DNA of 13,770 nucleotides, taken from positions 1 to 13,770 of the forward strand of contig JAFGAR010000150.1 in assembly GCA_016933575.1 (NCBI GenBank), read 5' to 3'. A program made the position numbers and the translations under genes. Position 1 is the stretch's first letter; the number at the start of each line of letters is the position of its first letter. Source of the DNA: Candidatus Thorarchaeota archaeon (GTDB lineage Archaea; Asgardarchaeota; Thorarchaeia; Thorarchaeales; Thorarchaeaceae). The notes below the pieces were generated by a model. The model saw only the letters and a list, made by a program, of their open reading frames with translations, did no database searches and had not been told where the DNA came from. This document shows, one piece after another, positions 1-12,992 of the stretch.

Positions 1-3000
1 ATCCAAGGTAGTGGTGTGAATGTTTCAGCTTCAACTACTGGATGTAGTATCGTCTTCTCTGATACTATCTCGCTTGATGATGTAGAATCTAACTACAATG
101 ACTTCGGTTTCGATATGTTCTATTCAGATGCTGTCATCATCTCAAATAGTACAGTAATTGGTGCAGATGAGGGCGTCCATTTCTATGCATGCAACTACTG
201 CGAGGTGCAGAATTGCACTATTCTTGATTGTACAGACTACGGCATCCATGACATTGCAGGCTATTACCTGATTGTGAATGACAATGAGATTCACAATAAC
301 GCTGAGGGAATATGGGTCACAACAACAGGAGGAATTTTCTCGAATAACACAGTTTCGGGGCATTATGGCTCAGGACACGCCATCTATTGTCAGGGGTGGG
401 ATTGCATCATCGATAACAACACATGCAGTGACTACTGGGCAGGTATAAGAATCGTTATCAATACGAACAACACGATTCGAAATAATCATGTCTACAATAC
501 TGGACATGGTATTCATCTGTATTATTCAAGCAACATTACAGTTCAACATAACTACGTTGAGAATGGAGACCAATGCATCGACTTGTATTATTCGCACAAT
601 GTAACTGTTGAGGATAATACCTGCAATGATCACGTACCCTTCTATCTCCTAGGCTCTGATAATAACACATTTCGTTCAAACACAATCATGAACTATGTCA
701 ACTACGGAATACGAATCGACAATTCGAGTAGCAACATTGTAGAGGATTCCATCTTCACATCTTCAGCCAACTATGGAGTCCTTTTGTATTATTGTTCGGA
801 AACAACACTCAGTAATCTGACAATTGAGAATGTGATCAACAAGGGAATTTACCTGCATTACTCATCGATGTCTATAATTAATAAGTGTATCATCCGGAAT
901 TGTGAATACGCCATCCATTCCTATTATTGCCTTTCAACAACATGCAATGCCAGCACCTTAGAAGACTGCTCATTATATGGAATGTTTAACGAGCGGTCTT
1001 CAGGGACAACGATGACTTTCAATAATATCAGTAGGTGCGAATACGGACTTGAGATATACATTTCAGATGACTGCATAGCTGCCATCAATACTGTCGTGGA
1101 CTGCCAAACAGGAATCATGATAACTGGAACTCACAATACCCTAACTGCGAATGTACTCTCGAGATCGGGAGTCTTCTTGGAAAGTCAGTACATGACTGTG
1201 AGTGGAAATTGGGTAGATGGAAAACCAATTGGATATTTCGCAAACCTGACAAGCGGCACCTACGACTGCTCAGGCTTTGGACAGGTATTTTTCGTAAATT
1301 GTGATAATTTGGATATTCATTCTGGTATCTTTGAGAATGTTAGCTTTGGTTTGGTTCTTGCAGATTGTGATTATTCAACTGTGCATGATATCTATGTCAA
1401 TTATCCCTACAGAATTGGAATCTATTTGATTAGAGGATATTCTTGTACATTAGAGAATTTCACCTGTATTAATTCATCAGGCTCAGGTGTATGGACCTAT
1501 CAGACGGATCAATGCACAGTAAGAAATGGAACGACCTTCAACAATGCTGTTTGGGGCGTATACATAAGAGAATCTCCGAATACCATTGTGGCGAATATTA
1601 CGTCTAACGGTGATGGGATTGACATCTATGCATCGAACTACTCGGTTGTTGAGGACTGTGTGATAGCAAATAGTAATCTCATGGGACTCCTGATTCAAGG
1701 CTCGGATTACTGCGAGATACAATTCAACACGATATGGAACTCTGGAGAAGCAGCCCTTGCTATCTATTCTTCCAGTCATACATATGCAGCATACAATAAT
1801 CTCTCTGATAGCTATTGGCCAGCGAATGTCAGAATCCAAGATTCATACAACACGACGATCTACTGGAATCATATCTTGCATGATGAGTACTACGATGGTA
1901 TTCTTATCACGAACTCTGACTACAACTATATCATCAATAATACGATCTTGGACAACGGCTGCTATGGAATCAGAGTAGAATCGACAAGCACGAATTGCCA
2001 CATTTACTCGAATATCATCGCCTACAATGGAGTGGAGAATGCGTGGGACGATGGAGCGAGTAACAGCTGGGATAATGGCATCCACGGGAACAAGTGGAAT
2101 GACTACAGCGGTATCGGCACATATGCTATCCCAGGAAGCGCACTCAGCGTGGATCATTATCCGCAGTTGTACGATACCTTTGCACCAACCATCGATAGCC
2201 CATCTGATGTCACCTATGATGCTGGAGAATCAGGTGCATCCATTACTTGGGCACCAAGAGACGGTCACCCGTCAACATTTCAGATTTACAGAAATGGCAC
2301 GAGCATTGCGAGTGGTCCTTGGGGTGGTGGTGATATCCCGATAGATGTAGATGGCTTGGGCATTGGTACATACAACTACACCCTCAAGGTCACGGATCTT
2401 GCTGGAAATGTGAAGATTGATACTGTCTATGTCTTCGTTAGATTTGATAGCAAGCCTCCGACGTTAGACCAACCAGCTGATTTTCAATACAGCGAGTTCG
2501 TAGCGGGAAATGTCAGTTGGATGCCATTAGATGTGCATCCTTCTTCGTATGATATCTACCAGGATAGCATCCTCATAACTAGTTCTCCGTGGGATGGAGG
2601 TGATATAAGCTATGCATTCAACCTTACGATGGGTGCCTATAATTTCACGATTGTGGTCTTCGATACTGTAGGAAATAATGTGGCTGATACGGTCTTCGTG
2701 ACAATACTCGACGACTCACCTCCTGTAATAATTGGACCTGATGATTTCCTCGTGTTTCTTGGCACTATCGATGAAGTGCTTCGATGGAATGTTACTGACG
2801 CTCATCCAAATACAGCAATCGTCTACAAGAATGGCACTCAAGTTGTGACGGCTAATTTCTATGGCACCTTCGCCAATGTTTCAATTAACACACTAATTGA
2901 GGGTGTATTCAATTACACAGTGATAGTATGGGATACCAGTGGTAATAATGCAAGGAATACCGTCTGGATCACAATCTGGAACCCTGACTTTCCATTCATA

Positions 3001-4218
3001 GATCATCCTGATGACATCGAATTCGTTGAAGGCACCGCTGGAAATTATCTAGAATGGAACCCAATCAGCAATCAGCCTGACACATACTCGATTGAGGTCA
3101 ACGGAACAGAAAAGAAGAGCGGTATCTGGAGCGTGAATATCACCATAAATCTTGATGATTTTGCGGTGGGAATCCACAATATCACAGCAATTGTCTGGTC
3201 CCAAACTGGTAACTCTGCAACTGACACCGTCTTTCTGAGGGTTCTGTATAATCCGCCACCTGAAATCGATAGCCCTGCAGATCTGATGTATGTCGAGTCC
3301 ATTGGATTGGGACAAATAACTTGGCATCCTACTGATGATAATCCAAATTGGTGGTACCTTTACATCAATGGCACGCTCAGGAGCGATGGGGGATGGACCG
3401 GTGGCAAGGTGGTCGGAAATGTCAGCTACCTTAGTCATGGCATCTACAATGCAACATTGGTTGTCGAGGACATTGGAGGAAAGACAATCTCGGATACGGT
3501 CTATGTCAGAGTTGTCTATGAATTGAATCCACCGGTGATTGCAGGACCTGCTGATCTTTCGTATACATTCGGTGATACAGGGAATGTGCTAAGCTGGGGC
3601 GCCTTTGATGAGCATCCCTCTCATTTACTCGTCTATAGCAATGGAACAATAGTAGACACGAGAGCATGGGACGGGTCTGTCATTACTACGAGCGTTGATG
3701 GACTAGAGCCCGGAGTCCATAACATAACACTCCTTCTCTATGATATCGATTTGAACTCGAACTCAGATACAGTGATGGTGTTCGTCGAGAATATTCAACC
3801 GCCGACGCTCTCCTTGCAACCGGATGTCACGACCCAACAAGGTGCAGATTCGCAGCTCAACTGGAATCCGTCGTCGCTGTTTCCTGACCACTACGAGATC
3901 TATGTTAATGGTAGCATGGATGTGTCAACAACATGGAATGGGGGATCCATCTCATACGATCTCAAATATTTAGAGCCCGGAGTATACAATATTACTCTTG
4001 TCGTCTATGACCAGGCCGGCAATAGTGCCTCTGACAGTGTCTGGGTTCATATCGAGGGCATGGGTGCCCTACCAGATTTCATGTCTCCGCTCATCCAGGC
4101 AGGGTCAGTGGTCACGATTCTTGTGGTCATTGCAGCCGCCTATCGCATATTCAAGCAAGCCGGACAATCCAAGGAAGAATCAGACTGGCGTTCTATGATG
4201 GATGACTTTGGGCACTAA
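1..4218 (+). CDS. Large cell-surface protein (5'-truncated): right-handed parallel beta-helix (NosD/CASH-like) region, seven Ig-like repeats, C-terminal TM anchor
   Basis: The frame is open from base 1 (ATC CAA GGT AGT GGT GTG), so the true start probably lies upstream. It has many 'GI.l..s.n..i.nN.i' beta-helix repeats, VDGKPIGYF, and a NosD-like cap NAWDDGASNSWDNGIHGNKWNDY...DHYP. Seven ~90-aa repeats follow, then hydrophobic LIQAGSVVTILVVIAAAYRIF and a short tail. N-x-S/T sequons are abundant. Confidence 0.9.
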   Translation: MQGSGVNVSASTTGCSIVFSDTISLDDVESNYNDFGFDMFYSDAVIISNSTVIGADEGVHFYACNYCEVQNCTILDCTDYGIHDIAGYYLIVNDNEIHNNAEGIWVTTTGGIFSNNTVSGHYGSGHAIYCQGWDCIIDNNTCSDYWAGIRIVINTNNTIRNNHVYNTGHGIHLYYSSNITVQHNYVENGDQCIDLYYSHNVTVEDNTCNDHVPFYLLGSDNNTFRSNTIMNYVNYGIRIDNSSSNIVEDSIFTSSANYGVLLYYCSETTLSNLTIENVINKGIYLHYSSMSIINKCIIRNCEYAIHSYYCLSTTCNASTLEDCSLYGMFNERSSGTTMTFNNISRCEYGLEIYISDDCIAAINTVVDCQTGIMITGTHNTLTANVLSRSGVFLESQYMTVSGNWVDGKPIGYFANLTSGTYDCSGFGQVFFVNCDNLDIHSGIFENVSFGLVLADCDYSTVHDIYVNYPYRIGIYLIRGYSCTLENFTCINSSGSGVWTYQTDQCTVRNGTTFNNAVWGVYIRESPNTIVANITSNGDGIDIYASNYSVVEDCVIANSNLMGLLIQGSDYCEIQFNTIWNSGEAALAIYSSSHTYAAYNNLSDSYWPANVRIQDSYNTTIYWNHILHDEYYDGILITNSDYNYIINNTILDNGCYGIRVESTSTNCHIYSNIIAYNGVENAWDDGASNSWDNGIHGNKWNDYSGIGTYAIPGSALSVDHYPQLYDTFAPTIDSPSDVTYDAGESGASITWAPRDGHPSTFQIYRNGTSIASGPWGGGDIPIDVDGLGIGTYNYTLKVTDLAGNVKIDTVYVFVRFDSKPPTLDQPADFQYSEFVAGNVSWMPLDVHPSSYDIYQDSILITSSPWDGGDISYAFNLTMGAYNFTIVVFDTVGNNVADTVFVTILDDSPPVIIGPDDFLVFLGTIDEVLRWNVTDAHPNTAIVYKNGTQVVTANFYGTFANVSINTLIEGVFNYTVIVWDTSGNNARNTVWITIWNPDFPFIDHPDDIEFVEGTAGNYLEWNPISNQPDTYSIEVNGTEKKSGIWSVNITINLDDFAVGIHNITAIVWSQTGNSATDTVFLRVLYNPPPEIDSPADLMYVESIGLGQITWHPTDDNPNWWYLYINGTLRSDGGWTGGKVVGNVSYLSHGIYNATLVVEDIGGKTISDTVYVRVVYELNPPVIAGPADLSYTFGDTGNVLSWGAFDEHPSHLLVYSNGTIVDTRAWDGSVITTSVDGLEPGVHNITLLLYDIDLNSNSDTVMVFVENIQPPTLSLQPDVTTQQGADSQLNWNPSSLFPDHYEIYVNGSMDVSTTWNGGSISYDLKYLEPGVYNITLVVYDQAGNSASDSVWVHIEGMGALPDFMSPLIQAGSVVTILVVIAAAYRIFKQAGQSKEESDWRSMMDDFGH
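2185..4056 (+). repeat. Seven tandem ~90-aa Ig-like beta-sandwich repeats within the surface protein
   Basis: Units begin PTIDSPSD, PTLDQPAD, PVIIGPDD, PFIDHPDD, PEIDSPAD, PVIAGPAD, PTLSLQPD. Most contain W..D..P..y.iy.NG and G.yN.Tl.V.D..GN...DTV.V.V. Confidence 0.85.
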
Positions 4219-4329: not shown

Positions 4330-4992
4330 TCATTCCTTGGTCTCACGCTTTCCATACTTTCGAAGGTAATACTGTCGCATGAAATGCGCCTCGAACTTGT
4401 TGATCTCCTTCGCCCCTCCGAGGAACTCAGCCTCAATGAACGCCTTACAGGCTTTCTCCAGCACGAAGGTGCAGGTGAATGCCTCTTCCATATCCCGACC
4501 AGTACAGACAGCGCCATGGTTCGCCATCAGCGCAGCATTCCGCCCTTTCAGCGCGTTCATTGTTTTTTTGACGATCTTCTTTGTTGAAGGGAGAGCGTAC
4601 TCAGCGACCCGAATGGTCGGACCGATGATCTGCACCATGTCGTCTAGGATCGGTGGAACCTCTCTTCGAGCAGCGGCGACTGTGGATGCGTTCATCGAAT
4701 GCGAGTGGATGACTGCGTTGATATCTTTTCTATCCCTGTAGATTGCGATGTGGAGCTTCATCTCAGCAGAGGGCTTATGCTTGCCTTCCCAGGTGACATT
4801 ATCTGAGCTGAAGTCGACGATGGTGATATCCTCAGGGACAAGGGTCTCATAGCTCATCCCGGAGGGTGTGATCGCCATTCTATACTCATCAATCCTACAG
4901 GAAATATTCCCCCATGTGCCACCAACCAGTCCATTCTGAATGAGTCGCTTCCCAGCATCGCATACTATCTTCTGAGATTCAGGAACATCCAT
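4330..4992 (-). CDS. Class II aldolase/adducin family protein (FucA-like), 220 aa
   Basis: GTWGNIS, ITPSG, PSAEMKLH (catalytic Glu), HSHS and ANHG (Zn ligands). The start is moved to ATG 4992 because a TTTATAA box at 5033-5027 puts transcription start near 5003. Confidence 0.9.
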   Translation of the reverse strand: MDVPESQKIVCDAGKRLIQNGLVGGTWGNISCRIDEYRMAITPSGMSYETLVPEDITIVDFSSDNVTWEGKHKPSAEMKLHIAIYRDRKDINAVIHSHSMNASTVAAARREVPPILDDMVQIIGPTIRVAEYALPSTKKIVKKTMNALKGRNAALMANHGAVCTGRDMEEAFTCTFVLEKACKAFIEAEFLGGAKEINKFEAHFMRQYYLRKYGKRETKE

Positions 4993-5026
4993 GAAGATCC
5001 CACAAATGTCCATACTAGTCAAGATA

Positions 5027-5033
5027 TTATAAA
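5027..5033 (-). promoter_or_regulatory. Archaeal TATA box for the aldolase gene
   Basis: TTTATAA on the minus strand, 35 nt before ATG 4992. Confidence 0.55.
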
Positions 5034-5088
5034 GGCAATCATTGAGAGAGTCCGACCTAATGATGGATTGACCACAACAATTGATGGA

Positions 5089-6564
5089 CTAACTGTAATA
5101 GCTTTGGGGTTCCACATTTTGCAGGGCCCTCTGGAATCTTGCTAAGGCGTCATCAATCACCTCGTCAGTATCTGCAAGACTAGTATACATACGAGACCCT
5201 GCAAGAGTCACGATACCTTCTGCCATATAGGCGGCTCCTATCTCCTCCATGAAATGCTGGCGAGCTTTGATCTCCTTCAAGATCGACTTGATCCTGATGA
5301 CATCCTTTGGAAGGCTGATCTTGATGAACATAGCACCAGAGGTCTCTAGATGGCAGATGGCTCCTTGGTTATAGGCAATAAAAGGGAGCTTCAGGTCCTC
5401 GATAATCTCCTCGAGTCCCTTGGTCAGTCGATCCCCTGCTCTTCCTGCGATCTCACATGCATTCGTTCTCTCGATCTCTTGAATCGCAAAATAGCCTGCT
5501 GCGGAACTCAATGGATTGGCAGCGAGGGTTCCGCCCACATAGGCGCGCTTCTTCCCGCCAGCGATTCCAGCGGCGAGGTGCTCCATGAGATCTCTCCTGC
5601 CCCCTAGACCACCTGCGGCAGGATAGCCTCCAGCGACGATCTTGCCAAAGGTGGTCAGATCGGGCTTGATCCCGAAGTAGCCTTGGGCTCCTCCGAGACC
5701 TATCCGTCCAAAGGTGACGACCTCATCGAATATCAGCAAAGCATCATACTGGTCACAGAGCTCACGGATCTGCTTGTTATGTTCCTTATCCACAGGTCGT
5801 GTACCAGACTCAGGACCGACGGGCTCAACGATCACTGCAGCTGTGCCTCCACGAAGACGATTCCTTGACAGCTTCTTTCGTAGCTTCTCGATGTTGTTCG
5901 GATAGACCTCTTGTGAATGCTGTCTGCTCCCCTTGGGTATGCCATGCGCTTCGAAGCCTCCAGTTCCGGGTATGTGAAGTCCATACACCATCTGGTCACT
6001 CCAGCCATGGTATGCACCACCCATCTTGATGACCTTCTTCTTCTTGGTGGCCAATCGGGCAAGTCTGAGTGCTGCCATAACAGACTCGGTACCGCTACCC
6101 AGCATGCGAAACATCTCGACTGCGGGGAGGTGCTTGTTGATCTCTCGAGCAAGCTTCAGCTCGAATTCTGAGAAGAGACCCGTCACTGGACCTCTCTCAT
6201 TGATCAATTGAATGACCTTCTCCCGCACTGGAGCATAGTTATTTCCCAGGATGATAGGTCCGCCCGCCTGCAAGAAGTCGATATAGCGATTGCCATCAAT
6301 GTCCCAGAGGTATGCTCCTTCTGCACGGTCGATGACGATGGGGAATGGATAGTTGAAGGCAAGATTATGCTGAACCCCTCCAGGGATGTACTGTCGGGCT
6401 TCAGTAATCATCTCTTTTGACTTTGCACACCTCTGCTCGAAATGCTCAAGATACTTCTGCAGGGAGTCTGCTTTTAACTTCTGTACCGGTAATTCCATCA
6501 TATGTTCTATCTTTCGATAGATATCTGCAGTATCGTGATAGTTGGATATACTATAACCCGACAT
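5089..6564 (-). CDS. Class III PLP-dependent aminotransferase, glutamate-1-semialdehyde 2,1-aminomutase (HemL)-like, 491 aa
   Basis: IPGGV, GAYLWDIDGNRYIDF, SGTESVMAALRLAR, GAYHG, IVEPV, LLIFDEVVT, DLTTFGK (PLP lysine), GGTLAANPLS. The first 61 residues of the 552-aa ORF look non-coding, so the likely start is MSGYSIS at 6564. Confidence 0.9.
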   Translation of the reverse strand: MSGYSISNYHDTADIYRKIEHMMELPVQKLKADSLQKYLEHFEQRCAKSKEMITEARQYIPGGVQHNLAFNYPFPIVIDRAEGAYLWDIDGNRYIDFLQAGGPIILGNNYAPVREKVIQLINERGPVTGLFSEFELKLAREINKHLPAVEMFRMLGSGTESVMAALRLARLATKKKKVIKMGGAYHGWSDQMVYGLHIPGTGGFEAHGIPKGSRQHSQEVYPNNIEKLRKKLSRNRLRGGTAAVIVEPVGPESGTRPVDKEHNKQIRELCDQYDALLIFDEVVTFGRIGLGGAQGYFGIKPDLTTFGKIVAGGYPAAGGLGGRRDLMEHLAAGIAGGKKRAYVGGTLAANPLSSAAGYFAIQEIERTNACEIAGRAGDRLTKGLEEIIEDLKLPFIAYNQGAICHLETSGAMFIKISLPKDVIRIKSILKEIKARQHFMEEIGAAYMAEGIVTLAGSRMYTSLADTDEVIDDALARFQRALQNVEPQSYYS

Positions 6565-6830
6565 CGTGTCTTCACGCAGATTCTCAAAAGAAGAAGTCTG
6601 ATGAATAAGTCTTTGGATAACTTCAGGAAAATTCGTTCTCCAATGCTTGTGATCAAATCCCTTCTCAATGGTAAGTAAACAGGGAGAAACAGAATTCCTT
6701 GAAGCTTGAAATTTGCTTCTGCGTGGATGTGTGTTTTTAAGCCTCATTCTGGTTCATATGCGTATGGATTAGATTTAAGAGCTAGTTCTTTTAGTGTATG
6801 ATAGATATGCATCCCTAGGAGATTATTGAT

Positions 6831-7665: not shown

Positions 7666-8598
7666 CTACCCCAGTGGCATAACAAGTAGAAAGTAGAAGA
7701 TGAAGACATCTGGAAGGAAATGAATAAGCCACGCCCAGAAGAAACCCTTCGTTTCAATCATGCTCTTTCCGAGGAAATATCCCAAGAATGCAGCTAGAGC
7801 GACACCGATGATGCCATTCGGGTAGCCAAAATAGTGACCCAGACCGAAATATACTGCAGTGATCTGTAGACCTTCATTCTTGCCAATGCCTGGTTCAAGC
7901 TCGCTTAGAGGAGCGGCGCGTAGGGTGAATTCCTCATTGAATGCGTTCATCGCGGCGATGAGCAGTGCCGCAGGCAACAACGGAAGCCCATTCACTATCA
8001 GATCTAGAGAGGGTTGAAATGAACCAACCAAGAAAATGACAGTGAAGACAACGAAGATGATGATGAAAGGTCTTGCGAGCTTTGTCCATGGCTCAGGAGC
8101 CTTCATTCCCAACAATCGAGAGGGCTCGGCCTCGGCATCAATCTGACCTTTGATGAGGTAAAAGTCACTTGGTCTACGTCCTGAAATGAGCAGAAAAAGG
8201 AGAACAGCAAATGCGGGAGTGAGTCGTAGCAGATGCACTGCAAACATATCAAATGGGGCCGGGATAGTTGCCACCCATATGCTCCATTCAGCACTTGCCC
8301 GGATCATGGGAACAAGTCCAAAATCCCAGCCGCCACCAAAACCAAAGAAGAAGATGATTGTCATGATCGAATAGAATCTCCACATGTATCGCGTTGGTTG
8401 ATAGGCAAGTGCTAGTCCAAGTAGGGCTAGCAAAATCACTCCATGGATAAATGGATACCAGAATGGCACCATGCCAAGAATCTCACGGAAGGGAATGATT
8501 GCCAAAGAGCTTGCGAAAAGCATCGCAGTCCATGCGAGTGTTACAACATAATCGACGGACTTTGAGCTTTGGTTCTCTGAACTATCTATTGTTGACAA
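7666..8598 (-). CDS. CPBP (Abi/Rce1, CAAX protease-like) intramembrane glutamic endopeptidase, 310 aa
   Basis: NEEFTLRA, FGLGHY and WLIHFLPD motifs in a multi-TM protein. The start is reassigned to TTG 8598, preceded by GGAGGAG (8612-8606) inside the upstream gene. Confidence 0.88.
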   Translation of the reverse strand: MSTIDSSENQSSKSVDYVVTLAWTAMLFASSLAIIPFREILGMVPFWYPFIHGVILLALLGLALAYQPTRYMWRFYSIMTIIFFFGFGGGWDFGLVPMIRASAEWSIWVATIPAPFDMFAVHLLRLTPAFAVLLFLLISGRRPSDFYLIKGQIDAEAEPSRLLGMKAPEPWTKLARPFIIIFVVFTVIFLVGSFQPSLDLIVNGLPLLPAALLIAAMNAFNEEFTLRAAPLSELEPGIGKNEGLQITAVYFGLGHYFGYPNGIIGVALAAFLGYFLGKSMIETKGFFWAWLIHFLPDVFIFYFLLVMPLG

Positions 8599-9457
8599 TT
8601 GATGACTCCTCCAGAACGAACGGCTCCTTAGAAGGATTTGAAGATATCTGTCCTCTTCTCGACTCAAGAACACGGAGAATGATCACAAGTCCCCAGATGA
8701 ATATCATAAGTGTCCAATGTCGTGATGAGTTGTAGATGAATGTGAAGGTGGTACCTAAAGCTTGGTGAGCGAACATCGCTGTCAGGATATTCCTCTTCGA
8801 GAGATTGAATAGCGAATCGATCATGAAGGACTGCCCTACCATTGAAAGATATCCAAGAACCGAGGGTTCGAGTCCGAAAGAGATGTTCATCATCTGGTGC
8901 CACAACCACCAGTAACTTCCGATGATGAAACTACCTATCTCACGACCATATCTCTGCTGCAGCTCTGTCATGGCAAAGCCTCTCCAAGCAGGTTCCTCAA
9001 AAAGTGGGCTTGTAATGAGGCTAGCCGAGAAATGAATGGGTATGACGGCCAATAGAACAAATCCCAGTTCAGCATACATCACAGGATCAAGGATGAAAAA
9101 TTCAGTCTCAAGACCTAACATGAAGTTAATTCCGTTCGCTGCAATAGCAAGCAATGGGTAGGCGAAGGCTGCCAGAATCAGGTAAGGTATGCTCGATTTC
9201 CATGTGCGAACACTGGAGAGGATGCCATCGAAGCTAACCTGTTTGTGAGTCGCCTTCTCGATTATCTTTAGTGATATGAGAGGGCTAACTGCTCCTAGGG
9301 TTGATGGAATCAAAACGAGCTCTAGAGGCCAAAGACCCAAGAATATCTGAATCCAAAAAATCCACCCCAAAGGTATTGTCAGTAAGAAGAAAATGCCTAA
9401 GCGATATCGGAATGCGAAATTGCTTTCTTGGCCACCATCGGTCTTTATCCGTCCCAT
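8582..9457 (-). CDS. CPBP (Abi/Rce1) intramembrane glutamic endopeptidase, 291 aa
   Basis: FEEPAWRG, WWLWH and AMFAHQ motifs, with multiple TM helices. Confidence 0.88.
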   Translation of the reverse strand: MGRIKTDGGQESNFAFRYRLGIFFLLTIPLGWIFWIQIFLGLWPLELVLIPSTLGAVSPLISLKIIEKATHKQVSFDGILSSVRTWKSSIPYLILAAFAYPLLAIAANGINFMLGLETEFFILDPVMYAELGFVLLAVIPIHFSASLITSPLFEEPAWRGFAMTELQQRYGREIGSFIIGSYWWLWHQMMNISFGLEPSVLGYLSMVGQSFMIDSLFNLSKRNILTAMFAHQALGTTFTFIYNSSRHWTLMIFIWGLVIILRVLESRRGQISSNPSKEPFVLEESSIVNNR

Positions 9458-11465: not shown

Positions 11466-11760
11466 AGCAAATATCGCATATTTGAGAAATCCGAATCATG
11501 GAGAAAGCATCACGGATTCTTCTTAATATTCCACCCATTCTCAGGTTCGCGAAAAAAGATGACTAGAGAGAGAACGAATCAACGAGCGATCATATCATCG
11601 AAACCTCTTGAAGAGATATCCACGTGCAGAAATATAAAGACCATACATTTCAAAACTGACCTTAGGAACAGAGAATCTAATGTTTTCTGTCAGTAGGCGC
11701 TTTTCTTTGCCATGAGGTTTCAAATACATATGCCTATAAGGGTATGATATGCACACAAAC

Positions 11761-11884
11761 TTGCAGGACATCAAGCAGGATGCGCCTTATCAGAAAGAGA
11801 TTCGTGATTGGTTTCAACCGTTCGCACCTCCCCGATGGATACGCTACTTTTGAACGACCTGCAATCAATTATGCTTCGGCATAA
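11761..11884 (+). ncRNA. Candidate structured cis-regulatory 5' leader RNA of the SSB gene
   Basis: Closing stem TTGCAGG (11761-67)/CCTGCAA (11858-64), internal hairpin 11804-11825, and terminal TTATGC-TTCG-GCATAA hairpin (11869-84). TATAAG lies at 11735-40. Folded by eye only. Confidence 0.5.
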
Positions 11885-11897
11885 GTGAGTGATACAC

Positions 11898-12503
11898 ATG
11901 AGTTACGAACGAGAGCCTGTAGAGGCCCAAGTGGCTGACCTGAAGCCACGCATGAAGAATCTTGTAATCACATTCAAGGTTCTTGAAATAGGTGAGGAAC
12001 GCGAGGTTTCCTCCCGAAATGATGGAGCAACCCACAGAGTCTTAGATGCCGTTGTCGGAGATGCGACAGGCACAGTTGCAGTCCCATGCTGGGATGACAC
12101 TATTGACATGCTTGAAGTAGGAAAGACCTTCACTCTGAAGAATGGCTACACCGGCTTATTCAGAGGAAACCTTCGACTTAACATCGGTAAGTATGGAGAA
12201 CTTTCAGAAGCTGAAACACCCATTGAAGAAGTCAACATGGAGAACGACATGTCTGCTGAAGAGCATGAAGACACACGGCGTTCCTATCGAGGCGGCGGCG
12301 GTGGTGGCCGAGGCGGCGGCGGTGGATACCGAAGCGGTGGCGGCGGAGACCGAGGCTATGGCGGTGGTGGTGGCGGCAGCTATGGCGGCGGTGGTGGCGG
12401 CAGCTATGGCGGCGGTGGAAGAGATCGTGGCTATGGCGGCGGTGGCGGCGGAAGAGACCGACGTGACCGTGGCAACAGTCGTGGCGGCGGAAGACGCTAC
12501 TAA
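11898..12503 (+). CDS. ssb: Single-OB-fold single-stranded nucleic acid binding protein (archaeal SSB/RPA type) with long Gly/Arg/Tyr-rich tail, 201 aa
   Basis: VADLKP, FKVLEIGEEREV, HRVLDAVVGDATGTV..PCWD and LKNGYTGLFRGNLRLNIGKYG match crenarchaeal/Thermoplasmata-type single-OB SSB. SD-like GAGTGA precedes ATG 11898. Confidence 0.88.
   Translation: MSYEREPVEAQVADLKPRMKNLVITFKVLEIGEEREVSSRNDGATHRVLDAVVGDATGTVAVPCWDDTIDMLEVGKTFTLKNGYTGLFRGNLRLNIGKYGELSEAETPIEEVNMENDMSAEEHEDTRRSYRGGGGGGRGGGGGYRSGGGGDRGYGGGGGGSYGGGGGGSYGGGGRDRGYGGGGGGRDRRDRGNSRGGGRRY
12288..12500 (+). repeat. GC-rich low-complexity GGN repeat encoding the RGG/YGG tail, including a 24-nt tandem unit (YGGGGGGS)
   Basis: CTATGGCGGYGGTGGTGGCGGCAG at 12356-12379 and 12380-12403, with a partial copy at 12404-12418. 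Confidence 0.9.
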
Positions 12504-12528
12504 GATTCATCCAATTTGGGTAAATACT

Positions 12529-12569
12529 AAGAATGGGTTGTAGAATGCAACCCATTTTTCCTTCTTTCT
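12529..12569 (+). terminator. Hairpin plus pyrimidine-tract terminator of the SSB gene
   Basis: AATGGGTTGTA-gaa-TGCAACCCATT (12532-12556), followed by TTTCCTTCTTTCT. Confidence 0.7.
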
Positions 12570-12662
12570 AATAGCCTATTCATGCTTTGACGTTCTTTAT
12601 GGACATCTTCAAGGCGTTTCGTTTCATACCATAAATGTAATCAAGTCTGAATTGAAGTAAAC

Positions 12663-12992
12663 CTACTCCACATTTAGTAATTCAACCTCGAACACCAATG
12701 TTGAGTTGGGTGGTATCAGACCGTTTCCGACATCTCGAGTGCCATAAGCCATTTCAGGAGGAATCGTTAGTCTTCTCTTCCCGCCAATCCTCATAGACAT
12801 CACACCTTCATCCCATCCTCGAATTACCTGTCCAACACCGATGGTGAACTCAAAAGGCTCACCTCTGTCCACTGAACTATCGAACTTCTTACCATCAGTA
12901 AGCCATCCAGTGTAATGTACGACAACCTTCTGACCGCGTTGGGGTGTTTCGCCACTTCCGACCACTAGGTCCTCGATCTGTAGATCTGACAT
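12663..12992 (-). CDS. Short FKBP-type peptidyl-prolyl cis-trans isomerase (FKBP12-like), 109 aa
   Basis: VVVHYTGWLTDGKKFDSS, GQVIRGWDEG, IPPEMAYG and IPPNSTLVFEVELL. The start is set to MSDLQ (12992), with TATATTAA at 13025-13018. Confidence 0.95.
   Translation of the reverse strand: MSDLQIEDLVVGSGETPQRGQKVVVHYTGWLTDGKKFDSSVDRGEPFEFTIGVGQVIRGWDEGVMSMRIGGKRRLTIPPEMAYGTRDVGNGLIPPNSTLVFEVELLNVE

Follow-up and report, generated by a model that had tools for sequence, protein, structure and literature searches.

A 13,770-nt stretch of DNA from a Candidatus Thorarchaeota archaeon (hereafter the window; contig JAFGAR010000150.1, our C137, from a bin of 3.47 Mb with 85.5% completeness and 6.9% contamination) encodes a small SSB (single-stranded DNA-binding) protein (positions 11898–12503, + strand) that consists of one OB fold, an acidic extension and a long Gly/Arg/Tyr tail. 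At odds slightly better than even (roughly 55%), we expect this protein to act as a general chaperone of RNA and single-stranded DNA (ssDNA) beside a separate replication protein, RPA. The proposal is drawn by analogy with the crenarchaeal SSBs and is made because cold-shock (Csp) proteins, lacking in that model, were not found in the genus, an RPA is present, and the SSBs occur in several copies behind structured 5' leaders. Homologues and related loci place the DNA in the Thorarchaeota, in agreement with an earlier annotation made from the sequence by itself (the first-pass annotation), which had supposed a probable Asgard archaeon.

Protein architecture and the C-terminal tail

The open frame comprises 201 codons and a TAA stop, and its best database homologues, proteins of 190 and 194 aa from other assemblies, share 97% and 94% identity with it in the OB region and carry the same type of tail. 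Ssb-like_OB (PF21473) was the sole Pfam domain detected in the protein (aa 15–102, E = 2e-14; 54 bits, the cut-off being 24), with no RRM and no cold-shock domain (CSD, PF00313) found in the same scan. Pfam, PDB matches, AlphaFold2 and Foldseek together delimit the OB fold to aa 8–104 (11919–12209, + strand). The PDB sequences matched were those of the Sulfolobus solfataricus SSB (SsoSSB; 1o7i, 2mna and 7wcg; E = 2.6e-14), human SSB1 (hSSB1, or SOSS-B1; 5d8f, 8e-13, and 4owt; about 1e-12) and Arabidopsis At4g28440 (1wjj, 9e-12). In these alignments W65, Y84 and F88 coincide with the SsoSSB residues that stack on bases (W56, W75 and F79) and have W55, Y74 and F78 as their counterparts in hSSB1; W65 is invariant and Y84 nearly so in the family alignments. 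An AlphaFold2 model computed from 42 homologues has pLDDT values above 90 at about aa 10–120 and below 50 at aa 132–201, and its top Foldseek matches are 1o7i, hSSB1 in the SOSS1 complex (4oww_B, TM 0.90 by target) and 1wjj. The best of the NCBIfam PRK06461 Sulfolobales-type SSB equivalogs, NF005049, scored 125.8 bits, below its cut-off of 188. With a single OB fold, the protein also differs from RPA1/RFA, which is recognized by several OB folds and a zinc-finger Rep_fac-A_C domain.

The segment that follows the fold (aa 105–126; 12210–12275, + strand; net charge -9) has the consensus EVN.EN.MS..E[HY]E, in which S119 never varies, either among 24 or among 42 diverse aligned sequences, and N116 and E124 are conserved, and this conservation reaches far beyond the Thorarchaeota. 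The model gives aa 101–120 pLDDT values of 97 and 92. Conserved, and confidently modelled as far as about residue 122, the segment is an ordered extension of the OB domain. The first-pass annotation had described it as an acidic linker; acidic it is, but not a free linker.

The disordered tail occupies aa 127–201 (12276–12500, + strand). Its 75 residues comprise 43 Gly, 15 Arg, 7 Tyr, 5 Ser, 4 Asp and 1 Asn, for a net charge of +11, and include three RGG, four [G/S]Y[G/S] and three RDR motifs. Tyrosines recur every 8–14 residues over aa 130–179, followed by the terminal Tyr 201. Two of the RGG motifs, at aa 131–140, lie four residues apart and form a di-RGG; the third is distant, near the C-terminus, and there is no tri-RGG. 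(The definition of Thandapani et al. 2013 is said to count RGG repeats 0–4 residues apart.) The protein ends in ...SRGGGRRY, the last part of a basic-aromatic tip, RDRRDRGNSRGGGRRY (12453–12500, + strand), that is conserved in close homologues. The Pfam match, and a translation that contains the quoted tail letter for letter, uphold the initial description of a single-OB archaeal SSB with a G/R/Y/S/D tail.

Such a tail is far beyond chance: only five open reading frames (ORFs) of the genome contain a G/R-rich tract, and four of them are SSB paralogues. The fifth, a 162-aa frame on another contig (C64_-_148599), has a G/R-rich tail reading GRGMGGGYGMGMGRG...RRRGGGNW, and its body, judged by eye, is a candidate small cofactor-binding domain of the NifX/NifB type.

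A database search returned about 519 homologues at E <= 1e-3, and the tail is present in nearly all of about 200 relatives. The 80 tailed loci in named assemblies belong almost entirely to Thorarchaeota, with a few from Hermodarchaeota, Promethearchaeota and Helarchaeota. The closest locus, L021 from isolate LCG1B.475, is 91% identical in DNA and 98% in protein over the OB part. In the tail the two loci differ by 3- and 6-nt indels and by offsetting 4- and 1-nt aligner gaps near the 3' end (net 3), all of them net multiples of three, so the frame has been kept. Glycine codons are mixed (27 GGC, 11 GGT and 5 GGA), the GC content is 0.72 in the tail against 0.47 in the OB part, and the tail DNA consists of tandem units of 21 and 24 nt; among close homologues the tail measures 28–77 residues. 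Logan contigs of the best-matching sequencing run cover 12334–12650 without a difference and break inside the GGC repeat at 12291–12333, so support for that stretch rests on the relatives. The frame-keeping and the conservation in relatives indicate a real tail rather than an assembly artefact, which the first-pass annotation had named as a way to be refuted. A search of sequencing runs listed no RNA run with this sequence. Two metatranscriptome runs from the study that gave the best DNA match contained hardly any of its sequence words, and among their contigs the sole match, 33 nt long, falls on the GGC repeat; none of this has a bearing on expression. Two shadow ORFs, one Ala/Val-rich (12142–12543, + strand) and one His/Arg-rich (12232–12555, - strand), are products of the same GGC-rich repeat. 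Several database proteins, some with Ala/Val-rich "tails" (P0055, P0124, P0159 and P0208 are examples), are wrong-frame or frameshifted calls over it.

As to the tip, R[RS][Y/F/W] closes 86 of the 116 close full-length homologues and RRR a further 23, RDRR occurs within the last 25 residues of 103, and none has an acidic end in its last eight residues. The RDRR...RR[Y/F/W] end is also found in most of the 80 loci from named assemblies. The earlier remark that an acidic tip is missing is therefore correct for this protein but incomplete, for a different conserved tip stands there: judging from these alignments, a basic-aromatic tip has taken the place of the acidic one.

We next place the tail within the wider family, for which 102 single-OB representatives of the 50%-identity clusters nearest to the query were surveyed. 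Glycine-rich basic tails were found in 22 of them and basic tails with less Gly in 46; 23 had a short tail or none, eight an acidic or neutral one, and three were wrong-frame artefacts. Y, F or W is the last residue in 17 of the 22 glycine-rich representatives. Taxa were looked up for two clusters, which name only Bathyarchaeia, "archaeon" and Diapherotrites: a Bathyarchaeia representative has GYGRGGGGGG repeats in its tail, and a Diapherotrites protein has an RGG/GYG tract followed by an acidic tip. The C-terminus of the Sulfolobales SSB, ...RGGRRQENEEGEEE, likewise has an RGG stretch ahead of an acidic tip (PMC10684826). Since basic tails are the commonest kind among the 102 representatives, the Thorarchaeota tail is not an Asgard-specific fusion; long, rich in Tyr and with its tip swapped, it stands at one end of a spectrum that spans the family. 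By the same survey, an architecture of this kind is nothing unusual among archaeal SSBs.

The suggestion of a eukaryote-like architecture in an Asgard archaeon survives as a likeness of composition. Like the glycine-rich RNA-binding proteins (GRP7, CSD proteins, CIRBP/RBM3 and FUS/hnRNP), the Thorarchaeal protein joins a folded module that binds single strands to a tail that is disordered, rich in Gly and furnished with Arg and Tyr. However, its folded module is an SSB-type OB rather than the RRM or CSD of the GRP7, CIRBP and Rbp proteins, such tails are common in the archaeal family, and no homologue of the arginine methyltransferases (PRMT) was found. PRMT5 and PRMT_C had no match in this 85.5%-complete genome, the PRMT_C search having matched no control genome either; eukaryote-style arginine methylation is thus without support. 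There is no evidence of common descent with the eukaryotic RGG proteins, and the likeness is probably convergent.

Paralogues, RPA and the 5' leader

The genome encodes four SSB paralogues with G/R/Y tails, located on C137 (the window), C215, the start of C156, and C7. Further paralogues comprise two tail-less copies on C156, a copy on C139 with an Arg/Ser/Tyr tail ending in W, and a diverged copy on C38. The tail-less genes (C156:29963–30328 and C156:36626–36991) lie 6.6 kb apart and both have the SSB leader described below, which the C139 gene (C139:21951–22316) lacks. Matches to the OB domain number 3–10 per genus genome, with 3–8 in genomes whose completeness reaches up to 97%, and several contigs carry two SSB copies in tandem. 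Because near-complete genus genomes are multi-copy and tandem copies stand on single contigs, the paralogy is genuine. Such a multi-copy, tandem pattern is unlike that of an essential single-copy replication factor. Tailed, tail-less and W-ending types recur in relatives of the genus, which suggests a division of labour among them.

Three larger frames of 277–315 aa (C196:17004-, C75:12225- and C156:290281-) combine an N-terminal region resembling GNAT acetyltransferases with a C-terminal SSB-like OB, and similar frames occur in relatives. A kinship between these GNAT-OB fusions and the GNAT gene of the window was considered and dropped, as the similarity is of the generic GNAT kind.

A separate multi-OB RPA, whose presence the first-pass annotation had proposed to check, is encoded on C21. 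This RPA1-like protein has three OB matches and a Rep_fac-A_C domain (PF08646), with NCBIfam "replication factor A" matches down to 2.5e-71, and Rep_fac-A_C occurs once per genome in 27 of 28 genus genomes. The cold-shock domain was found neither in this genome nor in any of the 28.

The window and L021 are homologous only over 11718–12515 (88% nucleotide identity) and the flanks are unrelated, so that the shared segment reaches upstream of the coding region. At its start lies an archaeal promoter region (11718–11745, + strand) with a TATA-like TATAAG at 11735–11740; in 19 SSB genes an ATAAGG box is conserved, together with an AATGCAC-like element upstream. Promoter function and a transcription start near 11760 are predicted from these elements. 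The putative transcript would then begin with a 5' leader of about 135 nt (11760–11897, + strand), which is delineated by alignment and covariation and comprises a closing stem, internal helices, a hairpin at 11869–11884 and a Shine-Dalgarno-like element, GUGAGUGA, before the ATG.

In 82 Thorarchaeota SSB genes the leader can be aligned. In the closing stem, formed by 11761–11767 with 11858–11864, two pairs show GC, GU and AU variants, and compensatory changes occur at several inner pairs, one of which is GC in 21, AU in 20 and GU in 14 cases. The hairpin before the Shine-Dalgarno-like GAG(A/U)GA has two forms in the same place, AUUAUGC/GCAUAA and UCGC/GCGA. When the structure derived from the minimum free energy was applied to the alignment, 69.8% of cells could pair against 42–50% in slid controls, a comparison in which the structure is favoured, being the fold of the sequence itself. 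RNAalifold on the 82-sequence MAFFT alignment returned only a 5-bp closing stem, the inner part being too poorly aligned, and no Rfam family was found at its gathering score in 11466–12700.

An nhmmer profile of the leader had six matches in the same genome with E < 1e-13, all of them directly upstream of SSB paralogues, of which four are tailed and two lack a tail. As it precedes paralogues of both kinds, the leader is tied to the gene family and not to the tail. A seventh match (C156:19544–19625, E = 0.001) was dismissed, since no gene start follows it. We regard the leader as a candidate autoregulatory or temperature-sensing element. Downstream of the gene, a terminator-like hairpin with a T run lies at 12529–12559 (+ strand); L021 has a different hairpin and T run at this site, despite the homology ending at 12515.

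RNA chaperone or DNA-binding protein

The best functional model that we can offer, by analogy, is the SSB of Saccharolobus/Sulfolobus, a non-essential RNA chaperone and cold-shock protein of Csp-less hosts. SsoSSB is monomeric, and most Crenarchaeota have SSB alone, without RPA. For 21-nt RNA and DNA alike, SsoSSB has an affinity of about 95 nM (PMC5346138). In Saccharolobus islandicus the gene can be deleted with no replication, DNA-damage or genome-stability phenotype; the Saccharolobus protein becomes more abundant when the temperature is low, and cells that have lost it grow more slowly in the cold; the protein melts double-stranded RNA and RNA/DNA hybrids, and its OB core complements an E. 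coli quadruple csp mutant, an activity kept in the SSBs of Csp-less Crenarchaeota (PMC10684826). The Thorarchaeal protein shares with SsoSSB and SisSSB ("SSB-1" type, Xiao et al. 2023) the single RPA-like OB, the stacking aromatics and a flexible Gly/Arg C-terminal tail. In contrast to the Sulfolobales proteins, its tail has about double the length, is rich in Tyr ([G/S]YG repeats) with a net charge of +11, and closes with RRY where theirs has the acidic ...ENEEGEEE; it has the conserved acidic OB extension EVN.EN.MS..EHE; and it coexists with RPA and six or more paralogues.

In the chaperone role that we propose, bases would be stacked by the OB fold against W65, Y84 and F88, the tail would add non-specific affinity for RNA and ssDNA through its RGG and RDR arginines, and the regularly spaced tyrosines could provide for multivalent self-association. 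The -9 segment beside the +11 tail may make intra- or intermolecular electrostatic contacts. The SSB, presumably abundant, would stand in for the Csp proteins not found in the lineage, with RPA serving replication, and its level would probably be set post-transcriptionally via the structured leader, possibly by SSB binding its own mRNA. RNA binding, chaperone activity, autoregulation and any condensate formation are thus what we infer for this protein.

Multi-copy SSBs behind long leaders recall the cspA genes and the self-regulated gene 32 of phage T4. Members of the bacterial CspA family are likewise small OB-type nucleic-acid binders with several paralogues and long, conserved, structured leaders. 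However, the Thorarchaeal SSB lacks a CSD and is therefore not a member, and temperature or autoregulatory control by its leader is presumed.

Several observations weigh against the chaperone proposal. A Korarchaeote and Heimdallarchaeote LC_2, both with Csp encoded in their genomes, have tail-less SSBs that prefer ssDNA and do not complement the csp mutant, and the LC_2 protein is the only Asgard SSB tested; in Saccharolobus it was the OB core alone that gave Csp-like activity, full-length proteins being toxic to E. coli (PMC10684826). TRAM was not found in the Thorarchaeal genome although it was matched in 14 of 14 control genomes, which may be a failure of sensitivity. To these points are added the incompleteness and contamination of the bin, the advantage that the leader structure had in the pairing comparison, and a z-score of only -1.2 for the single-sequence fold of the leader. 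The first-pass annotation had put forward an RNA chaperone rather than a replication SSB; the separate RPA, the absence of any detected Csp in the genus and the crenarchaeal chaperone homologue speak for it, whereas the ssDNA preference of the LC_2 protein and its failure in the csp test do not.

Those same ssDNA preferences favour an alternative in which the protein is an SSB of DNA metabolism, engaged in repair, recombination or the protection of ssDNA and R-loops, with the basic tail as a DNA clamp and the RR[Y/F/W] tip as a partner-docking peptide. Members of the family carry the annotation SSB or replication factor A1, the residues that stack on ssDNA are retained, and a conserved C-terminal peptide is a hallmark of partner-binding SSB tails. 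However, nearly every genus genome has a dedicated RPA, the SSB paralogues are several and include tail-less ones, and the crenarchaeal deletion gave no phenotype in DNA damage or genome stability (PMC10684826). Gene context offers no help to this alternative either: no DNA-repair or replication genes were found nearby, the FKBP and GNAT neighbours in the window stand beside none of about 90 related loci, and the context is not conserved even in L021, despite 98% identity of the OB part. On balance we consider a role in DNA metabolism unlikely, though worth keeping in view.

Human SSB1 and SSB2 (NABP2 and NABP1; 4owt, 4oww and 5d8f) and At4g28440 (1wjj) have a single OB that is equally similar and takes Foldseek ranks 3–4, and their C-terminal tail is disordered; the eukaryotic SSB1 and SSB2 act inside complexes of the SOSS/Integrator type. 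An archaeal counterpart of hSSB1/NABP (SOSS-B) that cooperates with the machinery of transcription, as it might in termination or in the control of R-loops, would agree with a similarity to hSSB1 as strong as that to SsoSSB (8e-13; TM 0.90 by target) and with the matching W/Y/F residues; the SsoSSB tail, moreover, binds RNA polymerase, and transcription is stimulated, according to work cited in PMC5346138. Against it, the multi-copy, leader-regulated layout resembles that of an abundant structural protein and not that of a complex subunit. To our knowledge, archaea have no SOSS/Integrator partners (none were sought here), and we know of no RGG-type tail in hSSB1. We therefore rate this second alternative as improbable.

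That the tail is a neutral low-complexity expansion by GGC-repeat slippage, with only the OB domain of consequence, agrees with its DNA of 3-, 21- and 24-nt tandem units, its variable length, the tail-less paralogues and the frequent breaks and frame shifts of assemblies at this place, but is hardly credible given that frame, G/R/Y composition, Tyr spacing and RDRR...RRY are kept in more than 100 sequences of 65–98% OB identity, that indels preserve the frame and Gly codons are mixed, and that similar tails recur in distant lineages.

Other genes of the window and wider implications

Elsewhere in the window, an ORF of at least 1400 aa (1–4218, + strand) runs off the start of the contig; it has many Asn/Ile-rich beta-helix-like repeats, about ten Ig-like modules of some 90 aa and a C-terminal membrane anchor, and is probably a surface protein. 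It is followed by genes, assigned by Pfam, for a class II aldolase beside a class III aminotransferase with an N-terminal extension (4330–6747, - strand) and by two adjacent, overlapping genes for Rce1-like membrane proteins of the CAAX protease family (7666–8673 and 8582–9457, both - strand).

The SSB family is annotated, and its RNA-chaperone role in Crenarchaeota was published in 2017 and 2023. In the open-access literature we found no paper on long Tyr/Arg/Gly tails with a basic-aromatic tip, on their prevalence in Thorarchaeota, on the paralogue expansion or on an SSB-specific leader, and none that joins Asgard archaea, RGG tails and SSB. A broader scheme can be imagined in which the Thorarchaeota, perhaps together with further archaea that lack Csp, run self-regulated SSB paralogues as their general RNA chaperone, the tails condensing with RNA as an independently evolved prokaryotic counterpart of the FUS/hnRNP low-complexity domains and the leader sensing protein or temperature; we offer it tentatively, and doubt that all of it will hold.

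Should the tail prove dispensable, it would be a mere compositional curiosity within a known family. If the chaperone proposal is true, it would extend archaeal "SSBs" as RNA chaperones from hyperthermophilic Crenarchaeota to mesophilic sediment Asgards and correct the labels "replication factor A1" and "single-stranded DNA-binding protein". The SSB-specific leader provides a testable archaeal case of post-transcriptional autoregulation. If the tail drives RNA binding and self-association, the Thorarchaeal protein would be a simple prokaryotic model of Tyr/Arg "sticker" domains in the lineage closest to eukaryotes.

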